Assembly: GCA_000091205.1 (NCBI GenBank)
Contig: AP006501.2
Source of the DNA: Cyanidioschyzon merolae
Taxonomy: Eukaryota
Reading direction: 5' to 3' (one strand)
DNA: 64,000 nucleotides
Position 1 is the first letter of the stretch. Each line of letters begins with the position of its first letter. Positions 13,768 to 52,189 of this stretch are shown one piece after another. The notes under the pieces were generated by a model. It had not been told where the DNA came from. It worked only from the letters and a program-made list of their open reading frames with translations, and searched no databases. A program made the translations under genes and the position numbers.

Positions 13768-15156
13768 ACGATCTTCGACGTGCTCTGTGAACGATGATTC
13801 GCTTCAGGCGACGTTGCGTTCGATGCGGGCTACTCAGACGCATAGACCACCAAGGGAGCTACGAGCTTGCATTGAGGAGCGTCATCCAGGAAAACGTCTT
13901 CCGATCACGCGAGCAGGTAGTCTTCGGGAACAGGTCGCTTGTGCAGTTGTCACGCTCGAACAAATCACCACTTTCTGGTCACTCTGAGCCGTTGATGGAA
14001 TCTGCAATCAAAGCATAGGACGAGCTGGTAGAAAATGAAAGGAAAACAGCGCGAAGAGCGCCTGGGTATACCTCTATCGGACGGTTTTGTGTTCTCTACC
14101 AAACGACATACGTTGTTGTTGACGAAACCGAGTTTCCGCGTTCGCACCGCGCTCGCCGTTTGCTAGACTCATTTCCGTGTTAAATAGGGCAGAGCCAATG
14201 ATGCGGGCGTACACTCGAAAGTTTGCGTCTCATGTGACTTTCATCAATACCAGCCTTTGCGGGCTATTTCTCCTACTGCGTCCTTTTCCTCTTTCTCATC
14301 ACTGTCATGAAGGATGCCGGTCTACACGGTTTCCCTACCTCCATTGCTAGCTTTCGAGGGATGCTGATGTCAGCGCTGCAATTCTGATTTCACCGCATCC
14401 GCCAAGTGTCGATCCATGTCATGCACAGACCATCGTTGTGAACTACGCGTTGATTTCCATTTTCTTCTTCTTGGTAAACTACCTCGCTGCGTCCTTCTCG
14501 CCTGGGTCACTTGACTGTGGTCAGGTATTCTTATGTACGTCCGTCCTGGAGCGGACACCCTCTGGGGTACGCGAAAGCCGTTCTGTCTCCGTGTCGCATC
14601 CGCACCGGCGCTAGAGGCGCTATCGCAGACGACCGGGGCAGGTACTCGGCGCGCGATAGAACGTATGAAACAACCAGCATATCCGAGAAGAGGTATGGGA
14701 CATGGAACTCGGAAGTATGGTGCATCATGATGGGCACTTTCCAGAATGCCAACATCCATTGCGCAATCAGGCAACGCGAGTCTGTGTCAACGTTTCGTCT
14801 GATGCAACGAAAAACCATCGTTTGGATTGCGCTGCAGGCGTCACGACACGAGCTGTGACACATGATGCCGCCATCGCCGCTGCCGCCTAGCGCAGCACGC
14901 GCATGGCGCAGAAATGACCCGAAAATATACAAATCTCCCTGAGCCTCCGGCGTGCACCGCGCACTGCACTGCAAGCGAGCGCTCTCTACGCTGTCTTCCG
15001 TATGGACAACTGTTGCGATCCATAGAACAACGCGCGTTGAGCCGCTGTTCTTAGAGAAACGGACCCGGGCGTGTGAATCTTGTTTCTTTTATAGCCCTAA
15101 ACACCGGGTTTTCTTGGTTGCTATAGAGAAGCCGTCAGACAAGACCAGCACACAAA

Positions 15157-22397: not shown

Positions 22398-23213
22398 TCA
22401 AGGCAAAGCAAGCATGTTCCGGTGTTCATAGTAGGCATAGAGTCGCTCAACGAGGGGGTCGAGGCTGAGCTTCACGCGGCGCATATACTCGTCTTTGCGG
22501 GACGCTTCCACTCCAATGGATGTAAGAAACTGTTCGATGGGAGGCAGGAAGAAAACCGCTGCACGAACCGCCGCAATAACGACGCTCCCGTGGTGTTCAC
22601 GCAGCGCCTCCTGGTACGCGGTCCAGACGCACTCGCGTGTCGCCGCGCGTTTCGAGTAGGACGCTGCCGGGCAGCGCGCGAGCTCCCGCATGAGTACCTG
22701 AATGAACTTGAGGCACCACATCATTCGCAGAATATTACGGGCTGCACCTTGCTTACCACTGCCGGTTTCCAGACACCCTTCTCGGGTTTCTCGCTCGATA
22801 ACCTTACGAATAGTGGCGTAATTCTCTGGGTCGCTCCGGTATATGCGGTACAGCGTGTCACGCTTTTCAACAACATCCTGGTGCGCGAAAGAGAATGCAG
22901 CACCGAGGTGCTGAAACATGCCCGCAACTGCGGACAAAGCCGCAATAAAGTCCAGCAGGTACGGCAGCGGCCAAGGCTCTTGCGCAGGCGGCTCGTCGTA
23001 GCGGATTCGCTCAAACGCTTCGAGAAACTTTTCGAATGAGAACGGCGTACCAGCGTCAGTGGTAATTCGATCAAGTTCGTTTCCTTTCGCTGACAACTCG
23101 CGAACGTGCATCCAAGATTCACTCTGTTCATCCCGTTGAGTCATAGTGTCGACCTGTCGGGAACGAGTGACCAAACGAGATGCGCCGTACCGCAGGTGTT
23201 CGGCGAGCCGCAT
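22398..23213 (-). CDS. Glycolipid transfer protein (GLTP/HET-C2 family)
   Basis: ATG at 23213 checked. FSFEKFLEAFERI...YLLDFIAALSAVAGMFQHLGAAFSFAHQDVVEKRDTLYRIYRSDPENYATIRKVIERE...ARNILRMMWCLKFIQVLMREL matches the GLTP fold signature regions. Confidence 0.8.
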   Translation of the reverse strand: MRLAEHLRYGASRLVTRSRQVDTMTQRDEQSESWMHVRELSAKGNELDRITTDAGTPFSFEKFLEAFERIRYDEPPAQEPWPLPYLLDFIAALSAVAGMFQHLGAAFSFAHQDVVEKRDTLYRIYRSDPENYATIRKVIERETREGCLETGSGKQGAARNILRMMWCLKFIQVLMRELARCPAASYSKRAATRECVWTAYQEALREHHGSVVIAAVRAAVFFLPPIEQFLTSIGVEASRKDEYMRRVKLSLDPLVERLYAYYEHRNMLALP

Positions 23214-23502
23214 CCGTCTTCCTCAACCGGCGCTATCGACGCTATTGCGGCCGCTTTCGGCAGGCACTAGCACCACGATAGGACGTATGAAACGACCAGA
23301 ATATCCGAGAGGAATTATGGGTAATGCAACTTGGAGGTAGGGGGTTGATGGATACCTCACCGCGCACTGAAAAAAACACACAAAAAAGTAAGAAAAGAAA
23401 AATGCACCAAATCGGAGAACGTTGGCCCAAGTAAAAGTTTTGACAATGAAAAAAATCCGTCTGCCTCACTGGACGTCGTCGAGCGATGGAGAGCGCGGGT
23501 GT

Positions 23503-24312
23503 ACAGCGACAGACGCAAGCACTGGCTCTTCCATTCGATTGCGAATGTCTGGATGGCGATACGGTCCGTGAGGAAACAGGTACCCGAGACAAAGTCCATA
23601 CTGGAGGAAAAGTTCCGCAATTTCGACTCAACTACGCTCCCTTCGCACCCACACGTGACCTATTGACCACCGGAGGCGATCGCTACGATGACTGCAATCC
23701 GGGTCCTTGGCCGTTTTCCATGCAAGCTGAGGAGCGCGGAGCCGCTGGGAGCGTGCTCCCCTGTGAGCGAGGTATCATGCTGCAGTCGACTTTGGTATCG
23801 TGGATGGCTACGACGAGATGCGGATTCGTGTTTCGGAAGACATCGATGATCGGACGCGAGCGGTTCCGTGAGCTGCCGCCTCTGACAGCCTGTGGTCGAC
23901 TTGTCACTGCGCGACGTCGCGATGCGCTCGATGTGCACCCAGCGGCGCGAGTCGCTGCGTCCACGCGGTGCCTTGGCGGGGAACCATCGAACACGTGAAG
24001 CGGGCGTGATTGGAACATGCTCCGCATTCGCACAAGAGCGTCACGGAGGCTTGGACGTATGCACGGGATACGGATATCGGTTGCTTTATGAACCGTACGC
24101 GGGAGGCGTCACGAGTCGCGTTGATTACGGTGACGTGCCGATGCCAGCGGGAGAACGTCGAACACGTCACTCTGGACACTCGATCGAGATTCCCTGAACC
24201 TCGTATGAAACCGTTGGCTCTGACAACTGCCATCGGCATGTCGAGGCTATGTGTTTCTGAAAACCCAAGTCCGGAACAACATCCGAATACGTGAACCGTA
24301 CGATCATCAGTA
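23503..24312 (+). repeat. Dispersed 810-bp element, copy A (near-identical to 34240..35049); no recognisable coding capacity
   Basis: Base-by-base comparison with copy B shows 5 mismatches in 810 bp, all in the 3' third. Flanks are unrelated. No long protein-like ORF, no terminal inverted repeats, no TG..CA ends, no obvious target-site duplication. Confidence 0.8.
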
Positions 24313-25206
24313 TAGTGTTTGAGTCTGAACGCACACAAGTGTGGATCCTCTGCGTACCGACTCGTGTTCATAGACGCACAGACAATCCGCTGAATTCATG
24401 GGTGTTGCTCCGTAACCAAAGGCCGCAATCTCTGCGTTTGGTATCTACCTGCCAGGAAGACTCTTTTACTCTTTAGATGCTTCTTGTGATCGTGGATGCA
24501 TTTCGAATAGGTTCGGTGCCGCGCCACTGCCGCATCCCAAGGTCACCCGGCATCGTGGTGCTCTCAGCGCTTCAGTTCGAAGGTATCTCGGGTGCGCTGA
24601 GGCGCGTCCAATAACCACATGTCGACTGTGGACGCTGCATATCAGTTCAGCTCGTCTGTTGTGTGTTCCTGTCGCGAGAAAACCGAACGTTGACGCAGCG
24701 TTGTCGCTTGCTCACCATTCACGGAAGCACGCTGTGCAAAGTTTCCAGTCAGTCGGCCGGCTTCACGCACCAGACATAAACACGGGCGAACCGAGTTCGA
24801 GTTCCGCGACGACCGCAACACAGCACCTGTCGCTGCAGAGACACCAGGCGGACTGAGTCGTGACCCGCTCGCCCGCCGGAGGCACGCGTGCTGCTCTCGA
24901 GGCCGGTACAGCGTTGTTCGTTAACGCTCGGGTGCTCGTTGAGTGGGTTACGGGGATCGGGCACGAGAACAGAGCTTCCTCGTCTGCACAAGCTTTGAAG
25001 CTCGTAGCGTCAACAACCGTACAGCGGGCTTTGCAGCCCCGGGAGTTGTCTACAGTTGCGTCTGGATGACGTTCGCGTTAACCTGGCACCGGTTATCGTT
25101 CAGTGCACGAGCGAGGCAGGTTCTCGCCGAACGTCGCATAGCGAAGCGGTGGCACCTGCCTCGCGATATGCACCAACGCTGCCAGCTTCGTCAAGCACCG
25201 TAAACT

Positions 25207-27954
25207 TTATGCAAACTTGGGAAACGACTCGCGCAAAGTCACCGTTCTGTTGAAAACGAGGTGAGGTGGCGAGGCCTCAAGCTGGGAGTCCGGGTCCACG
25301 CAATAGAACCCGACTCTCTCGAACTGAAAAATAGCGCCTGGTTGCCAATCATCCGCGGATTCGCACCGAGCTTGTTGCAGAATGCGCTCGCTCTTGGGAT
25401 TGAAGAAGGTCAGCCACCCGTCGCGCTCTGATAGGTTCTGCTCGGCAGCGGCTTGAAGCGGATCTTCCACGCAGAACAGGGGCTCGTACAAGCGGCATTC
25501 ACAGGGCATGCTTTTCTCGGATACCCAGTGCAACACACCTTTTGGACGAGGTTGCGGTAATTGGGTGAGAATCTCGGCATGCAGCAACTGAACTTGGTCA
25601 TCACTTGTGGCGGGCGCATGCTGGGCAGTCAAGGCGGCAAGAACGCGAATCGCGAACCCAGTGTGACGCAGCAGGGCTGCTTTCCCTGGTGCAAGCCCGT
25701 AATAGTCCTTCGCATCTTGTAAACGAAAATCAGTTCGCTCCAAGTAGATCATCGGGGTAAATTCGAGCGTACGCGTGCCCAACTCGGGTCGTTTGGGATG
25801 GTTCGGCACCTGCACGGTAACTGCTTCCGCTGCCGACAGCGCCTGGGCAAAGTTCTTCAGCAGCACGGGCAACGGTTCGAGCACCACCATGCGACGCGGA
25901 GCATGCTGATCCATATACTGACGCACACAAGCCTCTAGCTTGCGCAGATGCACGTTGTTCTCCGCCCGTGAAAACCCTACACTAGCCACAAAGTGGTTAA
26001 TGGCGACTGGCGTGTAGCCCCGGCGCCTCATGCCAATCAGGGTCGGCATGCGTGGATCATCCCAACCGCGCACTAAGCCGCGCTCAATGATCTGGGTTAG
26101 TTTGCGCTTGCTCAAAACCGTGTGTGAAAGATTCAAACGACTGAATTCAAAAACGAACGGCCGATACATGTCGAGAGCCTCTAGCAACCAGTAGTACGAG
26201 TCCCGTCGTATCTCGAATTCCAGCGTGCACATCGAGTGCGTAATCCACTCCAGCGAGTCGACCAGGCAGTGCGTAAAGTCGTACGACGGATAGATGCACC
26301 ATCGATCTCCGACGTGCGGATGCGCTGCGTACTTGATGCGGTATGCGACGGGGTCTCTCATGACAGGATTCGGATGCTGCATGTCGATCTTCATACGAAG
26401 AACGGCGGCACCCTCATCGTATAGTCCAAGACGCATCCGCTCGAAGCAGTCAAGGTTCTCCTCGACGGAGCGATTTCGCCACGGAGACGGACGCTTCTCT
26501 TCGCGATCGCGCGCCATCTCCTCAGGCCGCTGATGGCACACATAAGCCTTGCCACGTCGAATGAGTTCCACAGCGAGTTCATGCAGACGGTCGAAGTAGT
26601 CGGAAGAGTACGTGATCTGGTAGGGTTGATAACCCATCCACTGCACTGTCTCGATGATTGAATCGATAAAGGCCTGCTCTTCTGTGTCGGGGTTGGTGTC
26701 GTCAAAGCGCAGGATGCACCGGCCTCCGTTTCGCATTGCGTAACCAAAGTCGAGCAACATCGCCTTGGTATGACCGCAATGAAGATGTGCGTTCGGCTCA
26801 GGCGGGAAGCGCGTGACAACAGAGCATCCATCCGTATTTGCACGTTGCAGAGCGAGCAGCTCCGGTGTATTCCGCATGGAGTCTAACGATCGTGCGTCGA
26901 AATAGGCTGGTAGCGCTGCAAATGGATTTTCAGCGAGCTGCGCGTCCGTTTCGTTATCGATAGCCGATCCCGAGCCGATACCAGCGTGCCCGTCTTTCGT
27001 CTTTGGTGCGGAACTCGCAGACGTCGCGGTGTTGAGCATGCGTCGGTTGGTTTTGCAGCGATCATCTGATGGACGATCTGCCGCCTCTTTGCTGGTGGTC
27101 GTTGAGGCGCGCGATCCCGCTCCGGCCTCTGACGAGCGTGGGCCCAGCAACGCAAAGAGTTTTGCATCGACCGCTTCCTTGATGCGGCGGCCTTCAACAA
27201 AACGAACACGCCGCTGAACACCAGCGATAATGGGACCAAGTGGATACTTGTAGCCCCGCACCAACAGGTCGTCCATGATTGTCCGAATTTCTTCGTCGAC
27301 TGCAGCCGACAGCGTACTGTCGTCAACAACAACGCCCGCACCCACTGCAGCATTGAAGTCGTCGCGGTCAACTTTGCCCTCGGCAGCTGTGCCCGGAGCC
27401 GACTCGAGCAGCGCCTCGAGGTAAGCGAACGCCGCTTCGAGCTTGGCCGTGTTGTCGATGCGCCCGTCGCCAATTGCTTCAAAGATGAGCTCGCGAAAGC
27501 AGCGCAGTTTTGTCGGGAGCTTGCTCACAGCCACATAAAGCAGCGAGGCTTTCTGCGGCGTGAGTGCCTGCTCCTCAGGCAATCGATCCGCAGTCGACTC
27601 CAGCGCTGAACGTTTGGCCACTTGCACGGCCTCAGTTAGTGCCGCCTGGACTTTAGCCGACCGTGCGACCGCTCGAAGGTTTCGATCCTCAAGACCTAGA
27701 GCTCGCAACTGATCTAAGAGACCATCGTCACCGGAGGCAGCTGCAGCGACGGCGTTCGTCTCCATAACTACCAACGCAGCCGCAACGCAGCCGCGACACA
27801 GCACGACGGGCGCTAACGGGAGAGCCGTGCGTAGACGCCTGCGAAACGCCAGGCGTGGGAAAATAGCCCCAGCAGGGCGCTGCTGTCCAGGCGCTTCGAT
27901 GTCCGGTTTACGGCTGCGTTGCGATCCTGGCGTATGCACTCGGGTGCAGTGCAT
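25207..27954 (-). CDS. Glutaminyl-tRNA synthetase (class I; GlnRS), with possible alternative start at 27765
   Basis: ATG at 27954 checked. A second in-frame ATG at 27765 (checked) begins METNAV...LLDQLRALGLEDRNLRAV, which matches the GlnRS N-terminal domain. HIGH-type motif PEPNAHLHCGH. RFDDTNP and THSMCTLEF are GlnRS-type rather than GluRS-type. KMSKS-type VLSKRKL. Confidence 0.85.
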   Translation of the reverse strand: MHCTRVHTPGSQRSRKPDIEAPGQQRPAGAIFPRLAFRRRLRTALPLAPVVLCRGCVAAALVVMETNAVAAAASGDDGLLDQLRALGLEDRNLRAVARSAKVQAALTEAVQVAKRSALESTADRLPEEQALTPQKASLLYVAVSKLPTKLRCFRELIFEAIGDGRIDNTAKLEAAFAYLEALLESAPGTAAEGKVDRDDFNAAVGAGVVVDDSTLSAAVDEEIRTIMDDLLVRGYKYPLGPIIAGVQRRVRFVEGRRIKEAVDAKLFALLGPRSSEAGAGSRASTTTSKEAADRPSDDRCKTNRRMLNTATSASSAPKTKDGHAGIGSGSAIDNETDAQLAENPFAALPAYFDARSLDSMRNTPELLALQRANTDGCSVVTRFPPEPNAHLHCGHTKAMLLDFGYAMRNGGRCILRFDDTNPDTEEQAFIDSIIETVQWMGYQPYQITYSSDYFDRLHELAVELIRRGKAYVCHQRPEEMARDREEKRPSPWRNRSVEENLDCFERMRLGLYDEGAAVLRMKIDMQHPNPVMRDPVAYRIKYAAHPHVGDRWCIYPSYDFTHCLVDSLEWITHSMCTLEFEIRRDSYYWLLEALDMYRPFVFEFSRLNLSHTVLSKRKLTQIIERGLVRGWDDPRMPTLIGMRRRGYTPVAINHFVASVGFSRAENNVHLRKLEACVRQYMDQHAPRRMVVLEPLPVLLKNFAQALSAAEAVTVQVPNHPKRPELGTRTLEFTPMIYLERTDFRLQDAKDYYGLAPGKAALLRHTGFAIRVLAALTAQHAPATSDDQVQLLHAEILTQLPQPRPKGVLHWVSEKSMPCECRLYEPLFCVEDPLQAAAEQNLSERDGWLTFFNPKSERILQQARCESADDWQPGAIFQFERVGFYCVDPDSQLEASPPHLVFNRTVTLRESFPKFA

Positions 27955-27993
27955 CGATTCCGTCTAGGCATGCTCATTTTTCGATGTCCACGA

Positions 27994-28490
27994 CAATTGG
28001 AGGCTTGTTTCGCATCTATACGAGCTGTGGTATCTGTATCCCGGATCTATATACAAAATAGAGGATTCGATGTGTAAGACGATTAGAGGCTTGTTTCGCA
28101 TCTATACGAGCTGTGGTATCTGTATCTCGGATCTATATACAAAATAGAGGATTCGATGTGTAAGACGATTAGAGGCTTGTTTCGCATCTATACGAGCTGT
28201 GGTATCTGTATCTCGGATCTATATACAAAATAGAGGATTCGATGTGTAAGACGATTGGAGGCTTGTTTCGCATCTATACGAGCTGTGGTATCTGTATCTC
28301 GGATGTATACCCAAAATAGAGGATTCGATGTGTAAGACGATTAGAGGCTTGTTTCGCATCTATACGAGCTGTGGTATCTGTATCTCGGATGTATACCCAA
28401 AATAGAGGATTCGATGTGTAAGACGATTAGAGGCTTGTTTTGCATTTGTACGTGCTGTGGTATCTCTACATCAGATACAGGTACAGTCTG
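27994..28490. repeat. Tandem minisatellite, 86-bp unit x ~5.7, in the divergent intergenic region between GlnRS (-) and DHHC (+)
   Basis: Unit gattagaggcttgtttcgcatctatacgagctgtggtatctgtatctcggatctatatacaaaatagaggattcgatgtgtaagac recurs at 28081, 28167, 28253, 28339 and 28425. A partial copy lies at ~27994 and a degenerate copy at ~28430-28490. Confidence 0.85.
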
Positions 28491-29085
28491 GAGAATCCGA
28501 TACCCGCCGGTGGTCTGTTTTCAAAAGCCCTCTGCCGGTCGACAGCACGCGACATCAGGCTGCCAAACTCGGTTGCCACGCTGGACTTGTCGCCGGCATT
28601 CCAGACCGCATCGCTCTCGTTAACGATCTCAATCTTTCAAACAGTCGATTCAACGAAATTCACCAGATTCCCCCAAACGAGCGACTGCTGTCACGAATCC
28701 GCTGGAAAACGCGCAGTTTCCGCGCACTGCGTGTTTGGCAGGCATCTAAACTAGAACTAATTATATTATTAGGGACTAAATTACCATGTGGAAGCATTGG
28801 CGCTTCGCTGGACGTGGCGCGACGGCTGCCCGCCAGCCTCCCGCAGCACCCGCAACGTTGACGCTTCAGACGAAACGGTGTATGCTGGTATGCAGCTCGG
28901 CTGCAGTCGTTCCCGCTACTTCACGTTCGGGTTGCCTTCAGGGTCTCGAGACCTATACCACTAGTTGATTGCGGATAGTGGTGGCTTGACGTGTGTTTGT
29001 GTGTAAGCCGTACGGTGAGCGCGCTCTCGCGAGGGCGCGCGCCCTCATCGGACGTACAGTGCACGTCTGACACGGTGCGCTCGTG

Positions 29086-30222
29086 ATGGCGTGTCGAAAC
29101 CTGTGGCGCCTACCGCTCTCGCGCCGCTGGACGGGGCCTTCTTTCGCTCGTAGACGTGCGTTGAGTTTCGAGTACATTGCAGATGAAGCTCCCGGTTGTT
29201 TTGAGTGGTTTCTTGACTGGACGTCGCAGTTGAGTACGCTCTGCGCTCGGTACACAGGTCCTGTGTTCGTCTGTCTTGGCCTAGCGCTGATAAGTTTAAT
29301 CGTCTTCTCCTATTTTCGTCACATGTTACCAGCTCTCTATGAACTTGCGACGCGAAGCCCCTACTCAGGTTGGGCGCAGACGGCACTCCTCGTTCATCTC
29401 GTCATAGCACTCTACCTCCTCTACTGCGTCGTGTATGCGTACGCGAAAACGGTGACCACGGACCCCGGATCGCCGCCGCTCGCCGAAACTGTTCAGATGG
29501 CAGCACTTGATCCCCACATCGACGTCGCCGTCGTCGACGCAAAGCAGGGACGCTGCGCGGCTCGTGCTGCCACACCAAACTGCACCTGGACTGTCTGCGG
29601 ACGATGTCGTCGGTGGCGACCACCGCGCACACACCACTGCTCCGTTTGCCGCCGCTGCATCCTGCACATGGATCATCACTGCATCTGGATGAACGCGTGT
29701 GTAGGTTACCGCAACTACAGGTTCTTTCTCTCGACACTCTACTTTCTGGTCGTCGGGGCCGCCGATACGGTCGCTACGGTTCTCTTTCTCTGGTGGCGGG
29801 CATCGCATCGGAGAGAACTGCGCACGAACATCTGGCTCCTCTATTCCTTCGCACTGGCGCTTTGCCTCGGGGTCGCATTGTTGCTGCTGCTGGTGTTTCA
29901 CATTCGGATTCTTTCGCTGGGCCTCTCGACGATCGATTATCTCGCTGGCGGTGCGCGTGGCGCTGAGTCCGTAGCTGCACCGGTCGACTCGGGCGAGCGC
30001 ATGCAGCCGGGCTCGCAACTGGACCCCACGATCGGCAGGCATGGGCGTGCACCCCGACAAAGTCGCTTTTTCGAGCGGCTGCGGTTGAATGCTCGCAAGG
30101 TATTCGGCATCGAAAGACCATTGTGGTCTGTTTTTTTGTTTCCTCCCGTGCGTGGGGGCTCGAAAGAATCCCTTGCAGGCGAGCGACACCAGCCGGCTTT
30201 GCTTTCAGGCCTTGTGGTCTGA
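29086..30222 (+). CDS. DHHC-type zinc-finger protein S-palmitoyltransferase
   Basis: Track start 29083 is GTG; ATG at 29086. CGRCRRWRPPRTHHCSVCRRCILHMDHHCIWMNACVGYRNYRFF is a canonical DHHC-CRD. It is flanked by four predicted TM helices. Confidence 0.8.
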   Translation: MACRNLWRLPLSRRWTGPSFARRRALSFEYIADEAPGCFEWFLDWTSQLSTLCARYTGPVFVCLGLALISLIVFSYFRHMLPALYELATRSPYSGWAQTALLVHLVIALYLLYCVVYAYAKTVTTDPGSPPLAETVQMAALDPHIDVAVVDAKQGRCAARAATPNCTWTVCGRCRRWRPPRTHHCSVCRRCILHMDHHCIWMNACVGYRNYRFFLSTLYFLVVGAADTVATVLFLWWRASHRRELRTNIWLLYSFALALCLGVALLLLLVFHIRILSLGLSTIDYLAGGARGAESVAAPVDSGERMQPGSQLDPTIGRHGRAPRQSRFFERLRLNARKVFGIERPLWSVFLFPPVRGGSKESLAGERHQPALLSGLVV

Positions 30223-30690
30223 GCGAATAGTCGCAGCCGTGGCTGGCGTTCGGTGCATGCGTTGTTTCTCGAGGTTTGCTTGCAATCACCTGCTCTGCAC
30301 GCCACTCAGTTTCCCGCAGGTTCTTCGAAACAAGGACTTGCGATCTTGACCGATGAGCTGTTCGCTCGCTTGCTTCTCAAATGCTCTGAGTATTGTGCGC
30401 TGCTCCGCGCATGTACACTCGTCATAGCACAAGCCAATTTATGTGTACGATATCGAACGCGAATGTTCTCCCTACGAAACGATCCTGCAGAGCGGCTGCG
30501 CAGGTCCACCACCTCGTCCGTTCGGAAGAACGAGTGCATGTCGCGTTTTTGCAACATGGGACCGCTTTGAACGCGGCCGCAGCATTGCCCTGCCGCTCCC
30601 AGCACCGGTGCGATAACGTTCTTCATGCTCCTCTACGCAGAGCACGGATGCAGTCGCGACTAGCTCGTGCGAGCCTTTTCGCCGCCGTAT

Positions 30691-32421
30691 TCATTCCTCT
30701 TCCATGGGTACGTCGACCTGCACCAGCTCGATATCGAAGATCAAGAGTGCATTTTTCGGGAGCATTTGTCCGAACATTTCGGACATATTCTCGCAGCTTT
30801 CCGGGTGCACGTAAACGGTGCGCGCCTCGCCCTCGTGCATGTCGAGAACGATCTTTCTGAGCGCAGGCGGAGCGTCACCCACGCGCATGGTAATTGGATT
30901 CACCATTTCTCCGTTTTCATCGGACGGGCACGTAAAGAAGAAGCGCCCATCCAATAGACGGCCTTGCAACACCATCATGACGTTCACGTCATCGCTTTCG
31001 CATTTCTTGTGTGAGCCCCCTGCGGTCGCAGACGGCTCAGCGTCGTCGACTTCCTCCCAGACAATACGATCCGGTTCCAGGACATTAAACAGTTCTGGCA
31101 TTGTCTTTGCGGTCTCGAAGAAAGCTTCCGCCTCTTGCAAATTGATTTCACCAACGACATCATTCGCGATACCTTGTAGGATGCCCATCTGTCGCTCGTA
31201 TTTTGCGATATTAACCGGAAATTCTTTGCCGGCAAGCGCGTCACGAAAGCCGCGAATCACAAGCTCGTGATCGAGGCCGAATCCCGAGTTCAACAACGCC
31301 TGACCCAATGCAAAGCCATAGCCTATGGATAATTCGTTGAGATTCAGTCCCTGAGCACGTGCGAGCTCGCGCGTGCGCTCATCTCGCAACCGAGCACTCT
31401 CCTTGGCGGGATTTTCGGCCTCTGCGTCGTCAGCGCGTTCATCGTCTCCGGTATCCACCATGAGCCGGGATGAAGTCTGATGCACACCGTCGTGATGCCT
31501 GCGGTCGCTACCTGCCGCTGCATGGAGTGCGGAAGCTGCGCGCGCTGCGCCACTCGTCTGACCTGCTGCCTCGGTGGCGGCACTCAGACCTCCCTGCTGG
31601 GCGAATAGCTCTCTGGCAGCGCGCATAGACTCAGCCCATTTCTGAGGATCCTCCACAACTTCACGAAATTGCGGATCCGCATCCATCCATTGACGCAGAA
31701 AAGGATTGTTAAGGAGCGCTTGGCGCGACTCCTCCTGCTTCTCCGCAGATGAGAGGTACTCCTGCATTGCAGGCGATTCCCATAGTCCGCCCATTAACTG
31801 GGTCATCTGCTGCAACCAGTTCATGGTATCCGCCTGATCGCCACCTGCGGCGCCGCTGTTACCAGCGAGGAGCGACTGCAGGAGCGCGTTCGGATCAGCC
31901 ATGGCTGGGTTGGCGCCGCTGCTCCGCGAGCCTCGACCGCTGCTACCTGTGCCCAGGTTGCGCAGTTGCCGCGCAAGTGACTCGACGTCAGCAAGGCCAG
32001 CCCGTGAGCCTGAGCCTGCTCCTGCTCCTCCGGTTCCGGCTGAGGCCGCGGACGCCGTCCCAGACGTGGCTGTACGCGAGTTCCTCGAATCGCTTGAGGC
32101 GCCCGCAGCTGTGCTCTTCGTCGCCCGACTCGACGACGACGACGACGACACTGTGGCACTGTCAGCCGTGATACCGGGTCTCACGTTCCGCACTACGCTC
32201 ATAGTAACCTCAGTGAGCGCTTCATCAATGCCGTACGCTGATAGCGTTTGCTGCGGATTATCGAGTACCTGCCCACGGTACATCAGCATCTGATTCGTGA
32301 CCGGGATCCCGGCGCTCTTCTCCACCTCATTCTGGATCTCGTAGACAGAAGTGTGTACTCCCTTCTTAGGTACGACACTTATCTTCTTGCCGTTAAAGCA
32401 ACGAACTTGGAGCGTAAGCAT
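30691..32421 (-). CDS. Ubiquitin-like domain + STI1-like region + C-terminal FKBP-type peptidyl-prolyl isomerase domain (unusual fusion)
   Basis: ATG at 32421 checked. N-terminal UBL: MLTLQVRCFNGKKISVVPKKG...LMYRGQVLDNPQQTLSAYGIDEALTEV (ubiquitin-like). Middle: NPFLRQWMDADPQFREVVEDPQ is STI1/ubiquilin-like, with poly-Ser/Ala/Gly linkers. C-terminus: DDVNVMMVLQGRLLDGRFF...ITMRVGD...VLDMHEGEARTVYVHPE...LPKNALLIFDIELVQV is FKBP-like. Single uninterrupted 576-codon ORF. Confidence 0.7.
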   Translation of the reverse strand: MLTLQVRCFNGKKISVVPKKGVHTSVYEIQNEVEKSAGIPVTNQMLMYRGQVLDNPQQTLSAYGIDEALTEVTMSVVRNVRPGITADSATVSSSSSSSRATKSTAAGASSDSRNSRTATSGTASAASAGTGGAGAGSGSRAGLADVESLARQLRNLGTGSSGRGSRSSGANPAMADPNALLQSLLAGNSGAAGGDQADTMNWLQQMTQLMGGLWESPAMQEYLSSAEKQEESRQALLNNPFLRQWMDADPQFREVVEDPQKWAESMRAARELFAQQGGLSAATEAAGQTSGAARAASALHAAAGSDRRHHDGVHQTSSRLMVDTGDDERADDAEAENPAKESARLRDERTRELARAQGLNLNELSIGYGFALGQALLNSGFGLDHELVIRGFRDALAGKEFPVNIAKYERQMGILQGIANDVVGEINLQEAEAFFETAKTMPELFNVLEPDRIVWEEVDDAEPSATAGGSHKKCESDDVNVMMVLQGRLLDGRFFFTCPSDENGEMVNPITMRVGDAPPALRKIVLDMHEGEARTVYVHPESCENMSEMFGQMLPKNALLIFDIELVQVDVPMEEE

Positions 32422-34239
32422 CCGAGGAGACTCGATACCGACTGCACCTCAACCCGGGATGAAGCGACTCGAACGACGCCGGCTGCTCGTGAGGCGCACT
32501 ACGCTGGCCGGGCGCAGCAGCGGGGCGTGCGCAGCAGCGGGGCGTGCGCAAAGCGCTTGGGCATCGACGCACAGATGCATATTACGGCCCTAATTGTTCT
32601 ATTTTATTCTGGATCTTCCAGGGCCCTGCATGCGCGACGTGCCGCAGCAGGCGGCATTCCATGGTGTGCAGGCTCAAGATGACGCTGACCTGCTCATGAT
32701 GCAGTTTTATTACGGGGGATCCCTGGATCGAACGGGGTATTTGGTAGATACGTCGTTGCTTTGCGCAGATGGTCAGCAGAAGGAACAATGCTCTACGACC
32801 ATAGAGTGTACATCGATATATATCCACTTAGAGACGCTTTCCAGTGTTTTTTGACCGGCAGAATGCTCCGGGCTTCAGTTTCCCCCTGTATACTACGAGC
32901 GTGAGACGCTTCCCCGCAACGTTAAATCGCTTCAGTTCCTCGGTTCTCTTCTTTGGCGCTAGACATCGTCTTATATTCATGGCAGCGTTAACGTCTCGGA
33001 TCACGAACCCCACGCGTGCATTGCCTCTGGTGGAACTCATCAATGGAGGCATTCCTCGAACTCGTACCTTCTGTGCCAATACGGTCTCGTCGTTGGCGTG
33101 TCGGGCAAGCACCTTTTCTCGTCTACCTCTCCTCTTTCTCTTCTACTACTTTACCACTTGTTCTTTTTCGCTTGATGGTCGACGAGAGAGGATTTTGTTT
33201 CGTTTCTTTTTCAGGCAGCCGGAGACACCAGATCCCAAGATCCCCTACTTCCGTATCCATCCCTTTGCCCTGAATTTTCATTTTTGAAAATGGACGCACT
33301 TTGAACGTATCTGCTACAAACCGCGAAGACGCATTTGATCACACTCACCCTGGGGTGCAACACCATTGAAGCGAAACACTACAGTGGGTGCATCCATGAT
33401 GGCACACCAGACCGCCTGCTTCCACCGGGCACCATGCAAAAGTACCACGACCATCAGTCAGACTTTCCTCTCCGAATCATGGATAGCTCCAGAGCTACGT
33501 TGGACGTCGAGCCTGGTGTTGGCTGGAATCGCGGCGCTCAGCCAACGCTCAGCTGCAGACACCGCACAGAGACGGGACGGCTCTGTGGCATCCGCATGGG
33601 CGTCGGCTCGAGACCTGTACATAGTGGCGGTCCCGAACGCAAATTATAGGACGCTGTGAGATCCTGGTGAAGCATCGAGCAGTGTTTGTCGCAGAAGCCG
33701 CTACACGCGCACCTATATACCTATGAAGACTCATGTCGGTGTGGATGGAACGTGTCCACTCACTGGACACGTACATTCCGGAGGTTCAATCTCTTCCAAC
33801 TGATATCAAGATCAGCCTCTTGGGAGCTACTTCTGCGACTGCTTCCTGTTCCCCATTTGTATATCTGGATTTCAAAACGCCGGCTTCTCGCGTCCTTTTA
33901 GATCCATTCTCAGCAGTCGAAGGATTTTGGTAGCAGCGTCCAAGCCACGGCTTCGCTGTTGTCCTTGTTTTTCGCGCCCAGGCAGGAGATGCGATGTATG
34001 CTTCGGTGCACCGTTTGCAGAGCCGTCAACGCACAAGGGTCAGGTATTCCCATGAATGTCCCATGCGCATCATACTTTCGAAGGCTGCTCTGTGGCGCCT
34101 GTGCGCTTGCTTCATCGCTCACTTCATGCTTTTGACGGGTACAGAAAGATCGCCTCGATGCCCTCCACCGGTTCCGCGCCCGATGCAGCAGCGCTCGATA
34201 ACATGCGTCAGCAGGGCGAAACGCCTCGGTGCACCGCTG

Positions 34240-35049
34240 ACAGCGACAGACGCAAGCACTGGCTCTTCCATTCGATTGCGAATGTCTGGATGGCGATACG
34301 GTCCGTGAGGAAACAGGTACCCGAGACAAAGTCCATACTGGAGGAAAAGTTCCGCAATTTCGACTCAACTACGCTCCCTTCGCACCCACACGTGACCTAT
34401 TGACCACCGGAGGCGATCGCTACGATGACTGCAATCCGGGTCCTTGGCCGTTTTCCATGCAAGCTGAGGAGCGCGGAGCCGCTGGGAGCGTGCTCCCCTG
34501 TGAGCGAGGTATCATGCTGCAGTCGACTTTGGTATCGTGGATGGCTACGACGAGATGCGGATTCGTGTTTCGGAAGACATCGATGATCGGACGCGAGCGG
34601 TTCCGTGAGCTGCCGCCTCTGACAGCCTGTGGTCGACTTGTCACTGCGCGACGTCGCGATGCGCTCGATGTGCACCCAGCGGCGCGAGTCGCTGCGTCCA
34701 CGCGGTGCCTTGGCGGGGAACCATCGAACACGTGAAGCGGGCGTGATTGGAACATGCTCCGCATTCGCACAAGAGCGTCACGGAGGCTTGGAGGTATGCA
34801 CGGGATACTGATATCGGTTGCTTTATGAACCGTACGCGGGAGGCGTCACGAGTCGCGTTGATTACGGTGACGTGCCGATGCCAGCGGGAGAGCGTCGAAC
34901 ACGTCACTCTGGACACTCGATCGAGAATCCCTGAACCTCGTATGAAACCGTTGGCTCTGACAACTGCCATCGGCATGTCGAGGCTATGTGTTTCTGAAAA
35001 CCCAAGTCCGAAACAACATCCGAATACGTGAACCGTACGATCATCAGTA
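34240..35049 (+). repeat. Dispersed 810-bp element, copy B (near-identical to 23503..24312)
   Basis: Exactly 10,737 bp from copy A, same orientation, ~99.4% identical. It ends 406 bp upstream of the VPS13-like ATG. Confidence 0.8.
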
Positions 35050-35454
35050 CCATGGTGTCCTACCACGTTCTCGCCGGCGTCTAGACGCGCGCCCGTGCAG
35101 TGTTGAGTCTCGGATGCGCGGGCGTGTGCAGTTCCATCTGAATCATGAACAAGTCTGAACTTTCATAGATAATCTTGAACGGAGCGTTTCTTCATCCGGC
35201 ATGCGATGCGATGCGCTGCGCCGAGCCCCAACCAGAAACGCCTCCAGCTCCCGTTGATCCGCGAAACACTCGTACTCGCGGCTCGCCGCGCGAACAGCCA
35301 TTCATGGTGTGCCGCAGAATTCGCAACAGCTCCTTGACGTCCTGTATCCAAAACGTCTGGAGCGCTAGCACGGCGCTTGCGTACAAGTCTCTAGCAAGGC
35401 AGTTGCACCTGCAACCGCGCAAAGCCTTCAACCGCGAATGGTAACACCTGAAGC

Positions 35455-35972
35455 ATGCTGGAACGTTTTGTCGTGCAAAGGCTCTTGCGCTTCCTTGGTG
35501 ACTTTATCGAAGGCGGCCTCCAGGAGGAGCAGCTCTCGCTTCTCTTCGGTACCGGGAACAGCGTTGAGCTGCGGGATGTGCGTATCCGCTCGGACCGTCT
35601 GAAAAGTTTGCTCGCTGGAATCGGTTCGCCGGTGTATGTCCTGTGCGCCTCTGTGGGTACTTTGCGCGTGTCCATCGACCTGCGCGGGCGCGTCGCTGTA
35701 ATCGTCCGTGACCTCGTCGTTGTGCTCGCTGACCAGTACCCCGAGGCCGAGACCCGCCGGTCCACTGCCAGAGAACGCTATCGCAAAGCGATTCTGCGGA
35801 TCGATCAGGCGCAACGTCATTTGCGCCTGCAGCAGGCTTTTGAGGCAAGACCGCAACGCTCCGCCGCTACCGCCTCCGACGATGACAGCACCACTGTTTC
35901 TTCTTCGTCTTTAGCGGGACAGCGTTCGAGTGCATCCCCTCGTCGTCAAAACGACCGCCGCGATTCTCAGAC

Positions 35973-36011
<39 letters not shown>

Positions 36012-39000
36012 AGGAAGCGGGTGGGCCTTCTTCGGCTCCGGTGTGATCGAGTCGCTTATCGCGTACGTAGCGGATCGTCTCAGCATTCAGGTGGAGCGTG
36101 TGGTGCTCGGCTTTGCCGACCAAGGCGTGGTCATGCGCCGCGCCAAGGAGGTCTCCCCTCGCGGTTACCACTGGATCACTGTAGCATTCCTGGATCGCAT
36201 GCTGACCTCGGACTGGTCCCCGGAAAAACAGGAAGCCCCGTCCCTGGAACCCGCAAACGTACCAGGAACAGCTGCGAATCGGAGCAAGAACTTATTCGGT
36301 TCCGCACAGACAACAATTGTTCGAAAGCGACTTGCGCTCTCGGGGCTGCGTCTTAGCTGGATCCCCGACGGCAGCAAATCCCTCCGCAACATCAGCTGGA
36401 GTGATCCAGAGCTGGTACGCGAGTCTCTTTGGCGAACACGCGAAGAAAATGATGCCGACATTCTCGGACCCATAGAATTCGGCATTGGTCTCTACGTGAG
36501 CGGCTTCCGGGACTCGTTTCGTACCTGCATTCAAGCCACAGGGAACAACCTCGACTGCTCGCTGTCGCAGCTCCAGTATCTCGATATGGTGTCGGCAGCG
36601 CTGCGTCTGGGTGTTGGTCAAATAGCCAAGCTGTCTCTGTTGAGTGAGGAAATGACACGTGGCTCCCAGGAGTCCGCTGATCTTGGCCCAGGGATGCGAA
36701 AAACCGCCAGAGGCGAAGGAAGCGCTCCTGGACGTGCCGCAGCCCGCGAGCGCTGGGTGCAAGTCGTGCGCCATGTGCGACAGTCTGTTCGCCGTCGACA
36801 CGTCCCCTGGACCAGAGAGCACCTTTCCATGCAATGGACAAGACGCAAGCAGTACTTGGCGACATATTTAGCAGCAAATGTCCGCAGCGACAACCATTCC
36901 TGGCGTCTCGTGCAAGCGCTGGAGGAAACGATGGATTTAGAACAGATTCTGGCTCTGAGGGCCACCGCGGAAGCGTTGGTGCAACGCAGTCCACAGGAAG
37001 CGCTTGCGCTCTGTGATGAGGTGTCCATAGCCGCCCTGGTGGTGGTCAGTACACCGCGTTTCCAGCGTCTGCGACAGCAACGCCTAGTCTCCTGGTGCTT
37101 ATGGATGCTCTCCTGCATTTGGAGACTCGGCGCGCTGCTCTGGAGTGTACTGGAACGTCGCATATGGGGTCTGCGGCCGCTAGCCCACAAACTGGTACAG
37201 ATAGGGCGCACGCTGCGGCCGCCAATTCTCCAGGTATTGGCCGGTCAGTGGCTGCTCTCAGCGCCGACATTGCTTCCCGCAACCTCCGAGGAGGACGCCG
37301 ACCTCAGCCAGACAACAGAACATATCCTGGGTTCACTACATTCCTACATCCACACAGACTATGAGCGTTTCCTGCAACAACGCGACCTTCGCAGCAAACG
37401 TGCAAGTTCACCGACAGCCGCGCTAGCACCAACCCGAACATCGTCAATGCTTTCTGGCGAGCACGGAGGACGGAGAACTGCATGGGAAAGTGCGCTTGCT
37501 GCTGAAAGTGCAGTATTCCAACTCGATGTATCCGTGAACCGCGTGCAGCTGGCACTGTTCCAGGAACACCAACTAGTGGCGTTCACAGGAGCTCGTGCGT
37601 TCGCGGCACGCAGCAAACTGCTCAGCACCGCAGCAGTGCAGCACATTGGATGCCAGCTGTTCATCTCGAGTGCCCAGAACCTTGCAGTACGGGCCTGGCT
37701 GGCCCAGCTGCAACTCCGGGACGAAGCGAACAGGATCCTGGTGTGCAACCGCTATTGCCCTGGAAACCATGAGTCCGCTCACGGGACGCAGCAGCCACAG
37801 GCCCGGAACGCTGAAGAATCCGTTCCGGAAAGTGACCTCTCGTTAACTGGGCGCGATGAAGCACCCGAGGCTTTCCAGTTGCGACTGTGGAATCCTCGCC
37901 AAGGACTTGTTGATCTGGAACTGGATTTTGCGCCCTTGTCCGTTCGGATTTCCGCTGTACTGGTGCAGGCTTTGCTCCGGTTCTGGATACCTGAAACGCT
38001 GGCCTCCTTTGCGATGCAGGGCAGACGGTATGCTGCGCGCGTCCTACATGGTCTCCAAGAACGCCTGGTCCGCTCTGATGATGCTACTCTTGTTCAAAAG
38101 CTGAGCTCCATGTTCATGCAGCTTCGCTTTGGAGGTATGTTCATTGTTTTCGATGAAGACTTCCGGCTTCTGGAAGGCGCTGCAGTGACCTCAGCGGAAC
38201 AGTCGTCAACGTCACCCGAAGCATCACCTGCGTCGCTGGTGCTTTGCGTACAGCTCGCTGGAGCAGAGTTTCTCATGGGCGAGGAAACCGCCTTGACCGC
38301 TCACAGACAACCAGCGGATCAAGCGGTGCTCTTGGGCATCGACGCATTTGCCTCGTCCGTCCAGAAAGCACAGCAGGTGTTTGCCTTTCTGTCATCGTCA
38401 TCATCAGAGACGCGGGTGGACTTGCAGGGTACGGGCACCGACGAGCCCGCGCAGCAGACCCCACCGGAGACGCCCTATGTGGTCGACTCTCGCGTGGTGC
38501 TGCGCTTTCCGGGCCTAACGATCGGCTGGTGCCATGAAACCTCCGTTGAAGCGGCTAGCGCAGTTGTGCCCGTGCGAACGCTCTTGCAACTGGGCACCTT
38601 GCGGATTGGCAACACGATCGAACACTGCCTCGTAACGCAGGATCAACGACCCAAACTCCTAGCGCGGATTCTGGTGGGCATCCTCCTGGAACGACTCGCA
38701 GTGACTGCGGGCCTGAGCGACATCTGGGCGCTAGTGCAGGTCGCTTTGCGTTACCAACGTGTCATCCAGGATATACAGGTGATTTTGAGAGAAAACGATG
38801 CAGATCTATCCACGACGAGTCACCAGAACAGTTTGGACTCGCTTCGGGAGGCAAGCATATCATCGAACGCTTCGTCATCATCACCAGTAAGGAGTCGTGA
38901 AGCAACCAACTCGATATCGCGGGAGCTCGGTGCTGCGAAGATGCATCCGCCGCAACTGCAACAAAAGAGAATGCGAACACGCGAACGTGAACCGCATTTG

Positions 39001-42000
39001 CGAACCGCGTTATCGTTGAGACTGAACGAGCCCCTGCATGTGGAACTAGCTCTGGATCATGGCAAGTCTGCGACGATGACCCGTCACTGGCTACTGCGTT
39101 CCCGGATCGGCGTTCAAGGGCGACTGCTCCTGTACTCCAACCAGTCGATGTTGAGCCAGCTGCAGGCAAGCGGTATCAGTGTGGAAGCGGATGCATCAGG
39201 AGAGCGGCCCCGTTCCTGCCAAGTGCTGTTGGTAGCTCCCTTCCAGGGCGAGTTGGAGGCAATCTTCGAAGCCGCTGCTTCTACTTCTACTTGTACGACT
39301 AGTGATGCTACCGCGCTGCCGACACTGGACTGCGCACTGCGCTTGGATGCGATCGATGTGGTGCTCCCGTTCTCGTTTATCAGAGAGCTGGTGGATACTG
39401 GACTTGCATTCGGTGCCCTGTTGCACCAGGAAGTGACCCGCGCTGCGCCACCCGGGTCGCTGGAGACTCCGGTTACCATCACCCGGACAAGAGCAGCGGA
39501 TGATCAGGAGCCGTTCCTCTGGAGCGCAGACTTGAGCGCCCTGCCTGGCAACGCGAGCCTTGTCTTCGAGTTTGCTACCTCGGATCGAGCTGGCTACCTG
39601 GGAGTCGACCATCAGGGCCGCGTCCACGGTCCGGTACCCCTGGAACAAGCTGCGCGTTTCCGCGTTCAGCGGGTGCGACGCAAGGGCGCTCCCGTCGGTG
39701 TGATGCTGAAGCTTGAAACGGACCAATCCTCGGGCATGACCAGCACTTTTACGGTGCAAGTACTCGCGGACTTGTCGGATGTGTCGTTCGATGGACGTAC
39801 CACGAAGCCGACCCCAGCTGGGCCACACCTGGGTATCCGTCGCATTGCACCGGAGCTCCGGGACGAGGTTTGCCAACGCTCTCTGGAGCGGCTTTCCACG
39901 AACGGTACGGAATCTTCGGTGCTGGAAGCAACAGCTGGTTCGGAAGCAGGTGAATCCTCGGGAACGCTACCAGCAGCAGCAGCAGCAGCAGCAGCAGGGA
40001 CTCTCGGCTCATCCGGAAGCGCAGGTAACCGCCCGGAACGCAGCCGCTCCCTGAGACGATGGCTCGGAAACTCCGACTCGAGTACTCGATCCAGTACTGA
40101 AGTCGGAAGCGCTGCAGCAGACAAGGCGGATCGTCGCCAGCAGCGAAGCATCGCTACAAGTGCAACCAAACGAAAGCGTTGGCGAACCCGAGTAGCGGCT
40201 GGCGCTGGTGCTTCCACTGCTTCTGCCGATGATGATGATGCTGATGCTGATGATGATTTTGGTAATGAGCGCAACGATCAAGTGCTGCGTGCCTGTACCT
40301 GGGAATCTGTACCTGTTCATGGCGTGGCGGAAGCAGTCCTTCTGAGGCACGAAAAGAGCGGCCACTGGATAGGGCGAACACCAGCAGCTGGACCTGTTGA
40401 AGCGCACGACGCATCCAGTCCGGATGAAGCGCTGCACCTTGACTTGTTGCCCGGCGCTAGTGCAGCGCTGCCGTTGCGTCCGCTGCTCCTGCAACGGGCC
40501 CAGCACTTGGCCCAGTTCCAGCCGCTGATACGGATTCGTGCACAAGTGGCTGCCGCGGGCGTGCTCGTTCGGCTCTACGAATGGATGGACGAGGCAGCTC
40601 GCTATCGACTGCCGTTGTTAGCGCTCTCCGCGGTACCCATTGATGTACAGTCGGAGGTTTGTGTGTACCCCAGTGCGGCTGGCGTTGAACCGGAGCTCTC
40701 ACTCGCGCTCTCGTTGTGTCCGACGGTGAGCAGCTACCGTTTGGCACAGAGGCGATGGCGCGACCTGCTCGAGCCGGTGCCACTCTCTATGCAGGCGAGT
40801 TTGCGGGGAAAGCCTCGGTTTGTGGCGTTCCAGCTGCAGTTGGGCACTGCCGAACAACCGCTTCGGTTGCATGCGTACCCGCGTGGTGTGCACCTTATCA
40901 GCCAGCTGCTGATGGACCTCATGGATCGGACTGCAGCTTCGCGACTCACCACGGACTGGTGGTATTTCCACAACGAGACCGAAGCGACCCTGCAGTTGCA
41001 ATGGGACCTCAAAAACAGCACCCAAAACGTCGACAACGATGATAATGTCGACGTCGACGAGCCTGTTGTCGTCTATCCGGGTCAATCGGTGTGTTTGTAT
41101 CCGCCACGAGCCCTGTTGAGGCGAGCGCTGGTGCGCCTTGCGGACCTGGAAGCCGCCGCTCGTCAAAGAAGCGACGTTCCAGAGCCGTTCACTGCGCGTA
41201 TCCAAGTCGTGGGCTTCGGAACGCTACCTCCAGTACCGCTGCAAACGTCGGATGTGGTATCGCTGCCGCTCGAGCCGGACCCGGTTTGTACGACGAGTGC
41301 CACGCCAAGCGCCCGAACTCCGGTACCTGCAGACACAACCGAGAAGCAGACGCGTGGCGGTCGAGTCACCGCAGCATGCTCTGCACCTGCTGAGCGCTCC
41401 GTAAGCATTGCACAGCGCTCTGGAACGGAGTATCCGGCTGAGCGGGCTGGTGCAGACCCGACCACTTTGACAGCGACACGGGCGGCATTGTCCCAGCGAG
41501 TGTCCGCCGAGCAGCGGCTACCGACGGATGCACCTTTTGAGGTCCGGGCAAGTATCGACACGATGCAGCGTGGAAACGCAGCTGCACAACCACGTCTGCG
41601 TCTCCCAGGAGCAGCAGCAGCACCAGCAGTAGCAACTGACTCGACTCGTCGTCGTGTCGACGACAGTGAACGTGCGGCGCCTGTTGTGCTCTACTGGGTG
41701 CGCCTTAGCGATGGCTATCGTGACCATTTCTACCTGTACAGTCGGACCAAAGTCGCGAACCGTTGTCGAAGCATCGCCTTGTACGTACACGGTTTCCTAC
41801 CCGAGCACGAACGCCGTCATGCGGAAACTGTGCTTCGGAGGCAGGGGCGATCACCAGCGCTGGTGCTTCTGCAGCTGGGACGCACAGCAACTGCGCTTCG
41901 TTCAGCATCGAAGGAACCTTGGCGCAAACTCGGTCGAGGATTACGAAGCTTTTTCGGCATTCGGTCAAAGACACGGGCGATTCCCGAGCGACCAGCACCG

Positions 42001-42354
42001 CTACCCGGCTTGCCAGCGGAATCGTCTGGCTCTTGGTACGCGCTGATGCCGGTGAACATGCCGCAGTCTGAGTCCAGTGCCTCTGCAGCACCGGTTTCGG
42101 AACCTGCTGCAGGTGTGCTGGAGCCAGAGCAGGCACTCTTTCTGGGGACTTTCCTGCGGCCGACGCGCCTACGCCTGCTCCCCGTCACATCGACAAGTCA
42201 ACGCGTGTTCAATGAGGAGGCGTCTGCTATCGGAGGTCTAGAGTTTCCGCTCGTTGCTGGCCAGCTATCGCTGACGAGGAGCTATTTCCTGGTAGCTGCA
42301 GCGGTGGACGCTTCGTGTCAGCGCTTTCGCGTGATGGAGGTGGGTGCTCGTACT

Positions 42355-42389
<35 letters not shown>

Positions 42390-44595: not shown

Positions 44596-44634
<39 letters not shown>

Positions 44635-51489: not shown

Positions 51490-52189
51490 GCAGCTCACGG
51501 CGACGCGGGGCGATACGCGTTGTGCTCGGGTCGCGCAGGTGCAGAGCGCCTTGACGGGCGTCTGTGTCATGCTGCAACGCTGCGCGGGTTCGTCCATGTT
51601 CATGGAGGGTTTCGCGATCTTTATAGCACCGTGGCGGGTCTCGCTTGGATGCTGTGAAATAGCGAATCATGTGATGCCATGATCGTTCGGCGATCGCACA
51701 GGAGACTCGTTCGCGGCATACGAGGATGGCGCTCCCGCCTCGCTGGATTGCTGCAACGTACCAAGCCCATGTGTTGTTTTTATTTGATCACCAACATGAG
51801 ACGAGGACGCACATGGTGATGAAGGAAGCTTGAATACAGTTCTTGGATCCCATGCGCAGGTCGTAGTGCATCTCTTGTCTAGAGCATCGGGTGTGATGCA
51901 GCAAGCGAGTTTGAATGATGGATTCCGGGGGAATGTGGACAACCTGCAGCACTGCATGCGGACCGCTTACAAACAGTTGCTTGACGAGATGCGTCAAAGC
52001 GAGAGCACCCGACAGAGCCGTGCTCGAGTAACAGGAGACGCAATCCCTGATGGCACCTTGAATCAACCGTTTTTAGGTGATTCTCCCCGGACCATCCGTT
52101 TTACATTTCGGTTTCTCGTCATCCGCTTTTGGGGAGAGGTTTTGTCTCCTTTGTTCCATGATTTGCTCTCCTTCTCGTTTATTCGGCAG

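Follow-up and report, generated by a model that had tools for sequence, protein, structure and literature searches.

The sequence analysed here, referred to as the window, is a stretch of 64,000 nucleotides from chromosome 19 of Cyanidioschyzon merolae 10D; it contains large intron-less ORFs on both strands, at 55-60% G+C. The part under study is delimited by genes on either side. On the minus strand are found the genes for a glycolipid-transfer protein (GLTP; 22398-23213, 271 codons in the longest ORF), for GlnRS (25207-27954, with the stop codon at 25207) and for a ubiquitin-FKBP (FKBP-like) protein (30691-32421, start at 32421), while an ATG2/VPS13-like gene of 3729 codons is located on the plus strand (35455-46644, start at 35455). 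Copy A of the 810-bp repeat described below (23503-24312, plus strand; delimited with MAFFT and nhmmer) lies inside the 1993-bp spacer that extends from the GlnRS stop (25207) to the GLTP start (23213). Copy B (34240-35049, plus strand) makes up the 3' portion of a full-length element, which is found between the divergent starts of the ubiquitin-FKBP (32421, minus) and ATG2/VPS13-like (35455, plus) genes. The DNA between A and B holds the genes for GlnRS, a DHHC palmitoyltransferase and ubiquitin-FKBP. The flanking genes have consecutive protein accessions, thus no annotated protein gene is present within copy A or B.

Some features of the neighbouring genes deserve mention. The GLTP protein deposited at NCBI has 248 aa, with its start at 23144, versus the 271 codons of the longest ORF; the additional N-terminal codons overlap a second repeat, X (see below), so that the shorter annotated start is favoured. 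The ATG2/VPS13-like ORF contains CAG/CAGCAG runs at 35969-36019, 39963-40013, 42352-42402, 44594-44656 and other positions, and such runs also occur elsewhere in the window.

Alignment of the two copies with MAFFT, including 100 bp of flank on each side (23403-24412 versus 34140-35149), revealed an ungapped block of 810 bp with 5 mismatches, at unit positions 554, 570, 653, 688 and 772; bp 1-553 are identical, and identity breaks off abruptly on both sides. The same pair is recovered by a repeat search of the window, and the match is too long to be due to chance, so the pair is real. The copies have the same orientation and are 10.7 kb apart. The original prediction, made on these letters only, had described two copies about 99.4% identical with 5 differences, all in the 3' third, and this description is correct, all the mismatches falling past position 553. 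It had also called the flanks unrelated. This holds for longer flank alignments, which are at noise level (z 0.5), and for the profile of the repeat family described below, which gives zero matches in the left flank of A even at E 1000; however, the ~45 nt directly beyond each boundary show a marginal similarity between the two sites (shuffle p ~0.01 per side), which on each side lies beyond a segment of 40-48 bp found in B only.

The 810 bp are not a self-contained unit, but the 3' two-thirds of a larger repeat of ~1.35 kb. With nhmmer queries that included the flanks, the homology of B to its relatives runs 513 bp upstream of the 810-bp unit, to position 33727, which gives a full-length element of ~1.33 kb (33727-35054, plus strand). 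Two other full-length, diverged members were identified by nhmmer on the plus strand: C (1241-2607), between a PPR gene and a GDT1 gene, and D (56253-57589), whose end is 11 bp from the stop codon of a CPSF-A-like gene. A further plus-strand fragment, E (14165-14542), which comprises the 5' 378 bp of the element only, was found with the family HMM (E 4e-36). C and B share 54% identity (nhmmer E 1e-52 to 1e-56), and D matches B with an E of 1e-56 and C with one of 1e-80; across the family, pairwise identity is 53-56%, with nhmmer E values from 1e-52 to 1e-80. The 810-bp unit used alone as nhmmer query also detects plus-strand matches at 1804-2548 and 56794-57490 (E ~1e-33). The homology unit measures 1.33-1.37 kb, with no further extension in the nhmmer comparisons. 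Copy A matches the family HMM at positions 558-1366 only, corresponding to the 3' 810 bp, and the 5' 513 bp of element B have no counterpart at site A. In the 64-kb window, to which all counts refer, the profile methods (nhmmer) thus detect at least three full-length members and one 5' fragment, in addition to copy A, accounting for ~8% of the sequence. The original idea of an 810-bp element with sharp boundaries is therefore accurate for the abrupt end of the identity, but what these boundaries enclose is merely the part shared by a ~1.35-kb B and a partial A. Similarly, the proposed two-copy dispersed element has three more diverged relatives in the window, its near-identical pair occupies two neighbouring sites only, and the term dispersed applies solely to the old family, at ~54% identity.

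With its members ~54% identical, the family is, as judged from this divergence, an old one. B, C and D have lengths of 1328-1367 bp despite ~46% divergence, with conserved blocks in common; such a near-constant length is a little surprising under neutral decay and could be a sign of constraint. The plus strand carries all five members, but with four independent insertions this is expected by chance in about 1 case out of 8, and the shared orientation consequently means little. No consistent placement of the members relative to the neighbouring genes was observed. The family profile gave zero matches in the 20-kb orthologous loci of Cyanidiococcus yangmingshanensis and of another Cyanidiales lineage, and a degenerate family motif produced chance matches only in viral and prokaryote collections. 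The family is probably what is left of a non-autonomous mobile element that has decayed.

Other repeats are present in the window. Repeat X, of ~170 bp and unrelated to the 1.35-kb family, is found at 23191-23362 (plus), 14575-14744 (plus) and 5058-4888 (minus); its copies are ~70% identical (nhmmer E 1e-47 to 1e-54). The first one, directly to the left of copy A, extends into the initial codons of the 271-codon GLTP ORF, and the second is placed directly to the right of fragment E. No significant Rfam match was obtained for X; two weak sub-threshold matches near 14575-14744 fall outside it, and no covariation was seen. Tandem repeats occur at three places. An 86-bp repeat with ~6-8 copies of 66-96% identity is found in the GlnRS-DHHC interval (27894-28581), where many environmental contigs break and where copy number seems to be variable among strains; a 144-bp repeat, with 7 copies 95-98% identical, lies within a 319-codon ORF (52041-53204); finally, three copies of a 128-bp repeat (55708-56202) are located immediately upstream of member D.

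The absence of a protein-like ORF in the 810-bp unit, noticed originally, is confirmed. Each of its six frames has 4-8 stops, the longest open stretch being 164 codons, and all family copies have 4-17 stops per frame, except one frame of E (126 codons), which has a single stop. No Pfam family was found above threshold among the six-frame pieces of the unit. A search with its 170-codon ORF against 5.8 billion proteins returned only its own ORF from environmental gene calls; the second of the two protein searches with element ORFs in this database likewise recovered only the query's own ORF cluster. Translated comparisons between copies favoured no reading frame, and codon-phase tests revealed a weak bias in the C-D pair only. 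On these grounds a protein-coding reading of the unit or of the family was rejected, and the search for a coding gene, or for the ORF of a known transposable element, in place of a non-coding unit yielded no ORF, no Pfam match and no homolog. Separately, a frame of 429 codons with a single internal stop is present on the minus strand over the 3' two-thirds of C (1671-2957). As a gene candidate it was discarded, since it runs 350 bp beyond the element, 6 more stops are present in this frame elsewhere in the element, its composition does not look protein-like and its sole homolog is its own environmental gene call.

Units that are non-coding and of defined length, with B, C and D equal in length and carrying conserved blocks, could alternatively belong to a structured non-coding RNA gene family, consisting either of the unit or of the entire 1.35-kb repeat; transcription from interspersed repeats of C. 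merolae has indeed been reported by Nozaki et al. (PMC1955436). However, Rfam searches gave no match at the gathering threshold in the whole window and none at E<=1 around copy A. Moreover, the folding energy of the unit is no better than that of shuffled sequences (z -0.11 and +0.78 for the two strands), and RNAalifold of B, C and D returned a covariation term of +2.78, where positive values are penalising, with many pairs broken in one of the three sequences. The proposal of a structured RNA, one of those initially put forward, is therefore largely refuted, and we regard it as very improbable.

The assignment of the repeat to a known transposon class was considered on the basis of its termini and flanks. 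The aligned ends of A to E read AGACTCAT... and ...CATCAGTA(CCAT). Terminal inverted repeats (TIRs) are absent: for the 810-bp unit and for full-length B, C and D, the ends compared with their own reverse complement score like shuffled sequences, and the repeat search found 0 inverted repeat pairs in the window. Regarding target-site duplications (TSDs), no direct repeat of at least 5 bp is present around A, B or C, and one 5-mer around D is at chance level. An LTR or a solo LTR would be expected to show TG...CA termini with a TSD of 4-6 bp, and neither is seen at AGACTCAT... and ...CATCAGTA. A SINE should have a head derived from a pol III gene (tRNA, 7SL or 5S), a size below ~600 bp and an A-rich or simple-repeat tail; here ARAGORN detected no tRNA-like sequence in the window, Rfam gave no match, the length is 1.35 kb and no poly-A or simple-repeat tail exists at the aligned termini. 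No remnant of a reverse transcriptase or endonuclease, as expected of a LINE fragment, was found, with no Pfam match in the six frames of the unit, and none of the large ORFs of the window encodes a transposon protein. Finally, inspection of the termini of A to E revealed neither the 5'-TC nor the CTRR-3' with preceding hairpin typical of Helitrons, which insert between A and T. Thus, the earlier statements that the unit has no TIR, TSD, poly-A tail or LTR-type ends, and that it is not a standard DNA transposon, LTR element, SINE or LINE, agree with the end alignments and flank checks, each class missing its hallmarks; as to the MITE-like option that had accompanied them, its features, TIR and TSD, are both absent.

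The two sites were compared among strains using contigs from hot-spring metagenomes, which derive from close relatives (~99% identical) and were found via the neighbouring proteins. The unit is present at site A in every spanning contig (L011, L027, L030 and L031) and at site B in every spanning contig (L017, L018, L029 and L032), with unchanged boundaries in both cases. The units in these related strains are 97.9-98.9% identical to 10D, in short-read assemblies that may mix copies or strains, as in the visibly chimeric contig L024. Since both sites are occupied in every spanning strain contig, the duplication predates strain divergence. Many shorter contigs stop at or within the unit, as expected of a repeat, and these breaks indicate only its repeat status. 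An exact 26-mer scan for a third site across 241 M metagenome records retrieved six contigs, all of which correspond to site A or B; a third near-identical copy thus seems to be absent from the sampled populations. In L024, positions 1-1069 are unmatched in the window, contain a 332-codon ORF and are joined at window position 24732; this 5' part reflects either a chimeric assembly or structural variation, and its oddity lowers the trust that can be placed in that assembly set.

The strain data also exclude the possibility, raised at the outset, that the second copy is a duplication artefact of the assembly. Independent assemblies of different samples contain each copy together with the unique flanks that belong to it, A and B bear copy-specific variants, and the 10D genome is a finished telomere-to-telomere assembly (PMC1955436); the chance of such an artefact is practically nil.

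At a larger distance, in Cyanidiococcus yangmingshanensis (L033, JANCYV010000006.1), the order of the ATG2-like, FKBP, DHHC, GlnRS and GLTP genes and of the genes that follow is conserved. The spacers, conversely, are unalignable with those of C. merolae and much shorter, 700 versus 1993 bp at site A and 1146 versus 3034 bp at site B, and for this reason they allow no statement on which site came first. In another lineage (L034-L036), GlnRS and GLTP are adjacent, with a 425-bp spacer, and the upstream genes differ.

The clustering of the mismatches had originally been taken to suggest partial gene conversion, and the strain comparisons support this view. Positions 105 and 129 of the unit are G and A in both copies of 10D, whereas most other strains have A and T there, again in both copies. 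In sample 3300005573, comparison of A (L001/L028) with B (L017/L029) reveals 7 differences within the first 435 bp, as read from metagenome assemblies in which copies or strains may be mixed, versus 0 of 553 in 10D. Across the unit, 10D and other strains show differences at 12-17 of 810 positions (1.5-2.1%), while the adjoining unpaired 513 bp of B differ between strains by 0.4-0.8%; divergence between strains is thus 2-4 times faster in the duplicated part than in the unique part next to it, as expected if paralogous differences are shuffled between the copies. Within 10D, instead, A and B differ at 5 of 810 positions only, and the differences are tract-like, as in concerted evolution. Taken together, the variants shared within lineages, the faster divergence and the differences found in sample 3300005573 point to recurrent gene conversion.

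The most probable interpretation of the locus is that A is a partial copy and B the full-length copy of an old non-coding repeat, homogenised by gene conversion. Copy A would be a secondary copy of the last 810 bp of B, placed in the GlnRS-GLTP spacer, and this copying preceded the divergence of the sampled natural strains. As the pattern of variants shows, A and B have since then repeatedly exchanged sequence via non-crossover gene conversion; the latest tract in 10D wiped out the differences over the first 553 bp, leaving 5 in the last third. Crossing over between these direct repeats would remove the genes for GlnRS, the DHHC palmitoyltransferase and ubiquitin-FKBP, and, if this deletion is harmful, solely the conversion outcomes would persist. 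The pair itself would have no function of its own.

How A reached its site can be described less firmly, and the specific scenarios rank below this general statement. An ectopic duplication at the DNA level, by templated repair, or the conversion of an older fragment may account for it. The alternative that A is a 5'-truncated retrocopy of a transcript of B, or of a B-like master copy, produced at a nick by the non-LTR retrotransposon machinery of C. merolae, is unlikely; under this reading the family would count as a non-autonomous retroposon that depends on LINEs. 5' truncation is a classic outcome of target-primed reverse transcription, and A fits this pattern, since it matches the family HMM at 558-1366, retains the family 3' end within ~5-15 bp and lacks the 5' 40%; the genome also contains 26 non-LTR elements, three of which have an intact reverse transcriptase ORF (PMC1955436). 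However, A has neither a poly-A or simple-repeat tail nor a TSD. B, C, D and E, four members out of five, start alike at the 5' end instead of being ragged, and E lacks the 3' part, a truncation that reverse transcription from a 3' end does not generate. Furthermore, at such a divergence the 3' end of the family is itself loosely defined.

Somewhat less credit is given to the scenario in which site A earlier held an old, diverged family member, or an older and longer duplicate of B, and the 810 bp correspond to the conversion tract that overwrote its core, with indels on both sides. The ~45 nt of marginal A/B similarity past the B-only segments of 40-48 bp (p ~0.01) would fit such a history, as would the positions of E (5' 378 bp) and A (3' 810 bp), each adjoining a copy of the 170-bp repeat X, so that the two could be the halves of one disrupted element. 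Nevertheless, the family HMM is blank in the left flank of A, the longer flank comparisons are at noise (z 0.5), and conversion between sequences of 55-70% identity is mechanistically unlikely.

Another reading, which we consider improbable, sees the family as an uncharacterised non-coding mobile element, devoid of TIR, TSD, tail and ORF, that was still able to make a partial copy; in addition, the direct repeats might, in natural populations, lead to excision of the 10.7-kb GlnRS-DHHC-FKBP segment as a circle or to its amplification in tandem. The C. merolae genome is among the most repeat-poor of free-living eukaryotes. As to amplification, seven contigs (L019-L025; window 23503-35050) join the GlnRS-side flank of A, the unit and the FKBP-side flank of B. 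All are circularly permuted versions of the 10.7-kb unit-plus-spacer, one of which, L019, even has a self-overlap of ~120 bp. Their junction fits a GlnRS-DHHC-FKBP circle or a tandem duplication, but the same junction is expected of an assembler looping through a collapsed repeat.

The partial A and full-length B, homogenised by conversion, resemble low-copy segmental duplicates subject to ectopic (interlocus) conversion. As in those systems, two direct copies lie on one chromosome, the paralogs are closer to each other than the orthologs are between strains, the differences all fall at one end, and divergence between strains is raised in the duplicated part. Differently from them, what is duplicated here is a piece of a decayed repeat rather than a gene. 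Truncated non-LTR copies and their non-autonomous riders offer another comparison: like these copies, A has lost the 5' part of its source but not the 3' end, while the remnants of reverse transcriptase or endonuclease, the tail and the TSD are missing, and the other members have a common 5' end.

Repeats have been described previously in this genome. Nozaki et al. (2007; PMC1955436) reported 26 non-LTR elements, 8 class II elements and no LTR elements, together with 253 copies of an interspersed repeat of 3.2 kb on average, approximately one per 65 kb and representing 5% of the genome, each with a truncated ORF that resembles WSV486 (WSSV wsv486) by BLASTX. The family described here shares with this repeat the genome, the interspersed and intergenic location and the non-standard transposon nature, and its ~8% of the window is comparable to that 5% of the genome; its size of 1.35 kb and its density of 4-5 copies per 64 kb do not fit an element of 3.2 kb present once per 65 kb. 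More recently, Hisanaga et al. (preprint, 10.1101/2022.10.24.513474), using EDTA, listed 1755 TEs, 24% of which are Helitrons and 40% unknown. The Helitron and unclassified elements of this set are similar to the family in the absence of TIR and TSD and in a density of about one per 9-13 kb, whereas the family ends, AGACTCAT... and ...CATCAGTA(CCAT), differ from the 5'-TC and CTRR-3' with hairpin of Helitrons. The family may be part of one or the other of these repeat sets. The 810-bp unit is neither a new kind of element nor an RNA gene: the locus combines an old unclassified interspersed repeat with a low-copy duplicate under concerted evolution, both of which are well-known phenomena.

This is an ordinary genome feature and its relevance outside the C. 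merolae genome is small. As a model, C. merolae stands for a minimal eukaryotic genome, almost free of repeats, in which homologous recombination is very efficient. Old, diverged repeats that are visible only to profile methods represent a noticeable share of its intergenic DNA at this locus (~8% of the window), and the A/B locus, where two 810-bp repeats are separated by 10.7 kb, provides a clean natural case of ectopic gene conversion. In practice, short-read assemblies break here because of the pair, and it could cause off-target recombination or rearrangement during gene targeting near GlnRS, GLTP, FKBP and ATG2.
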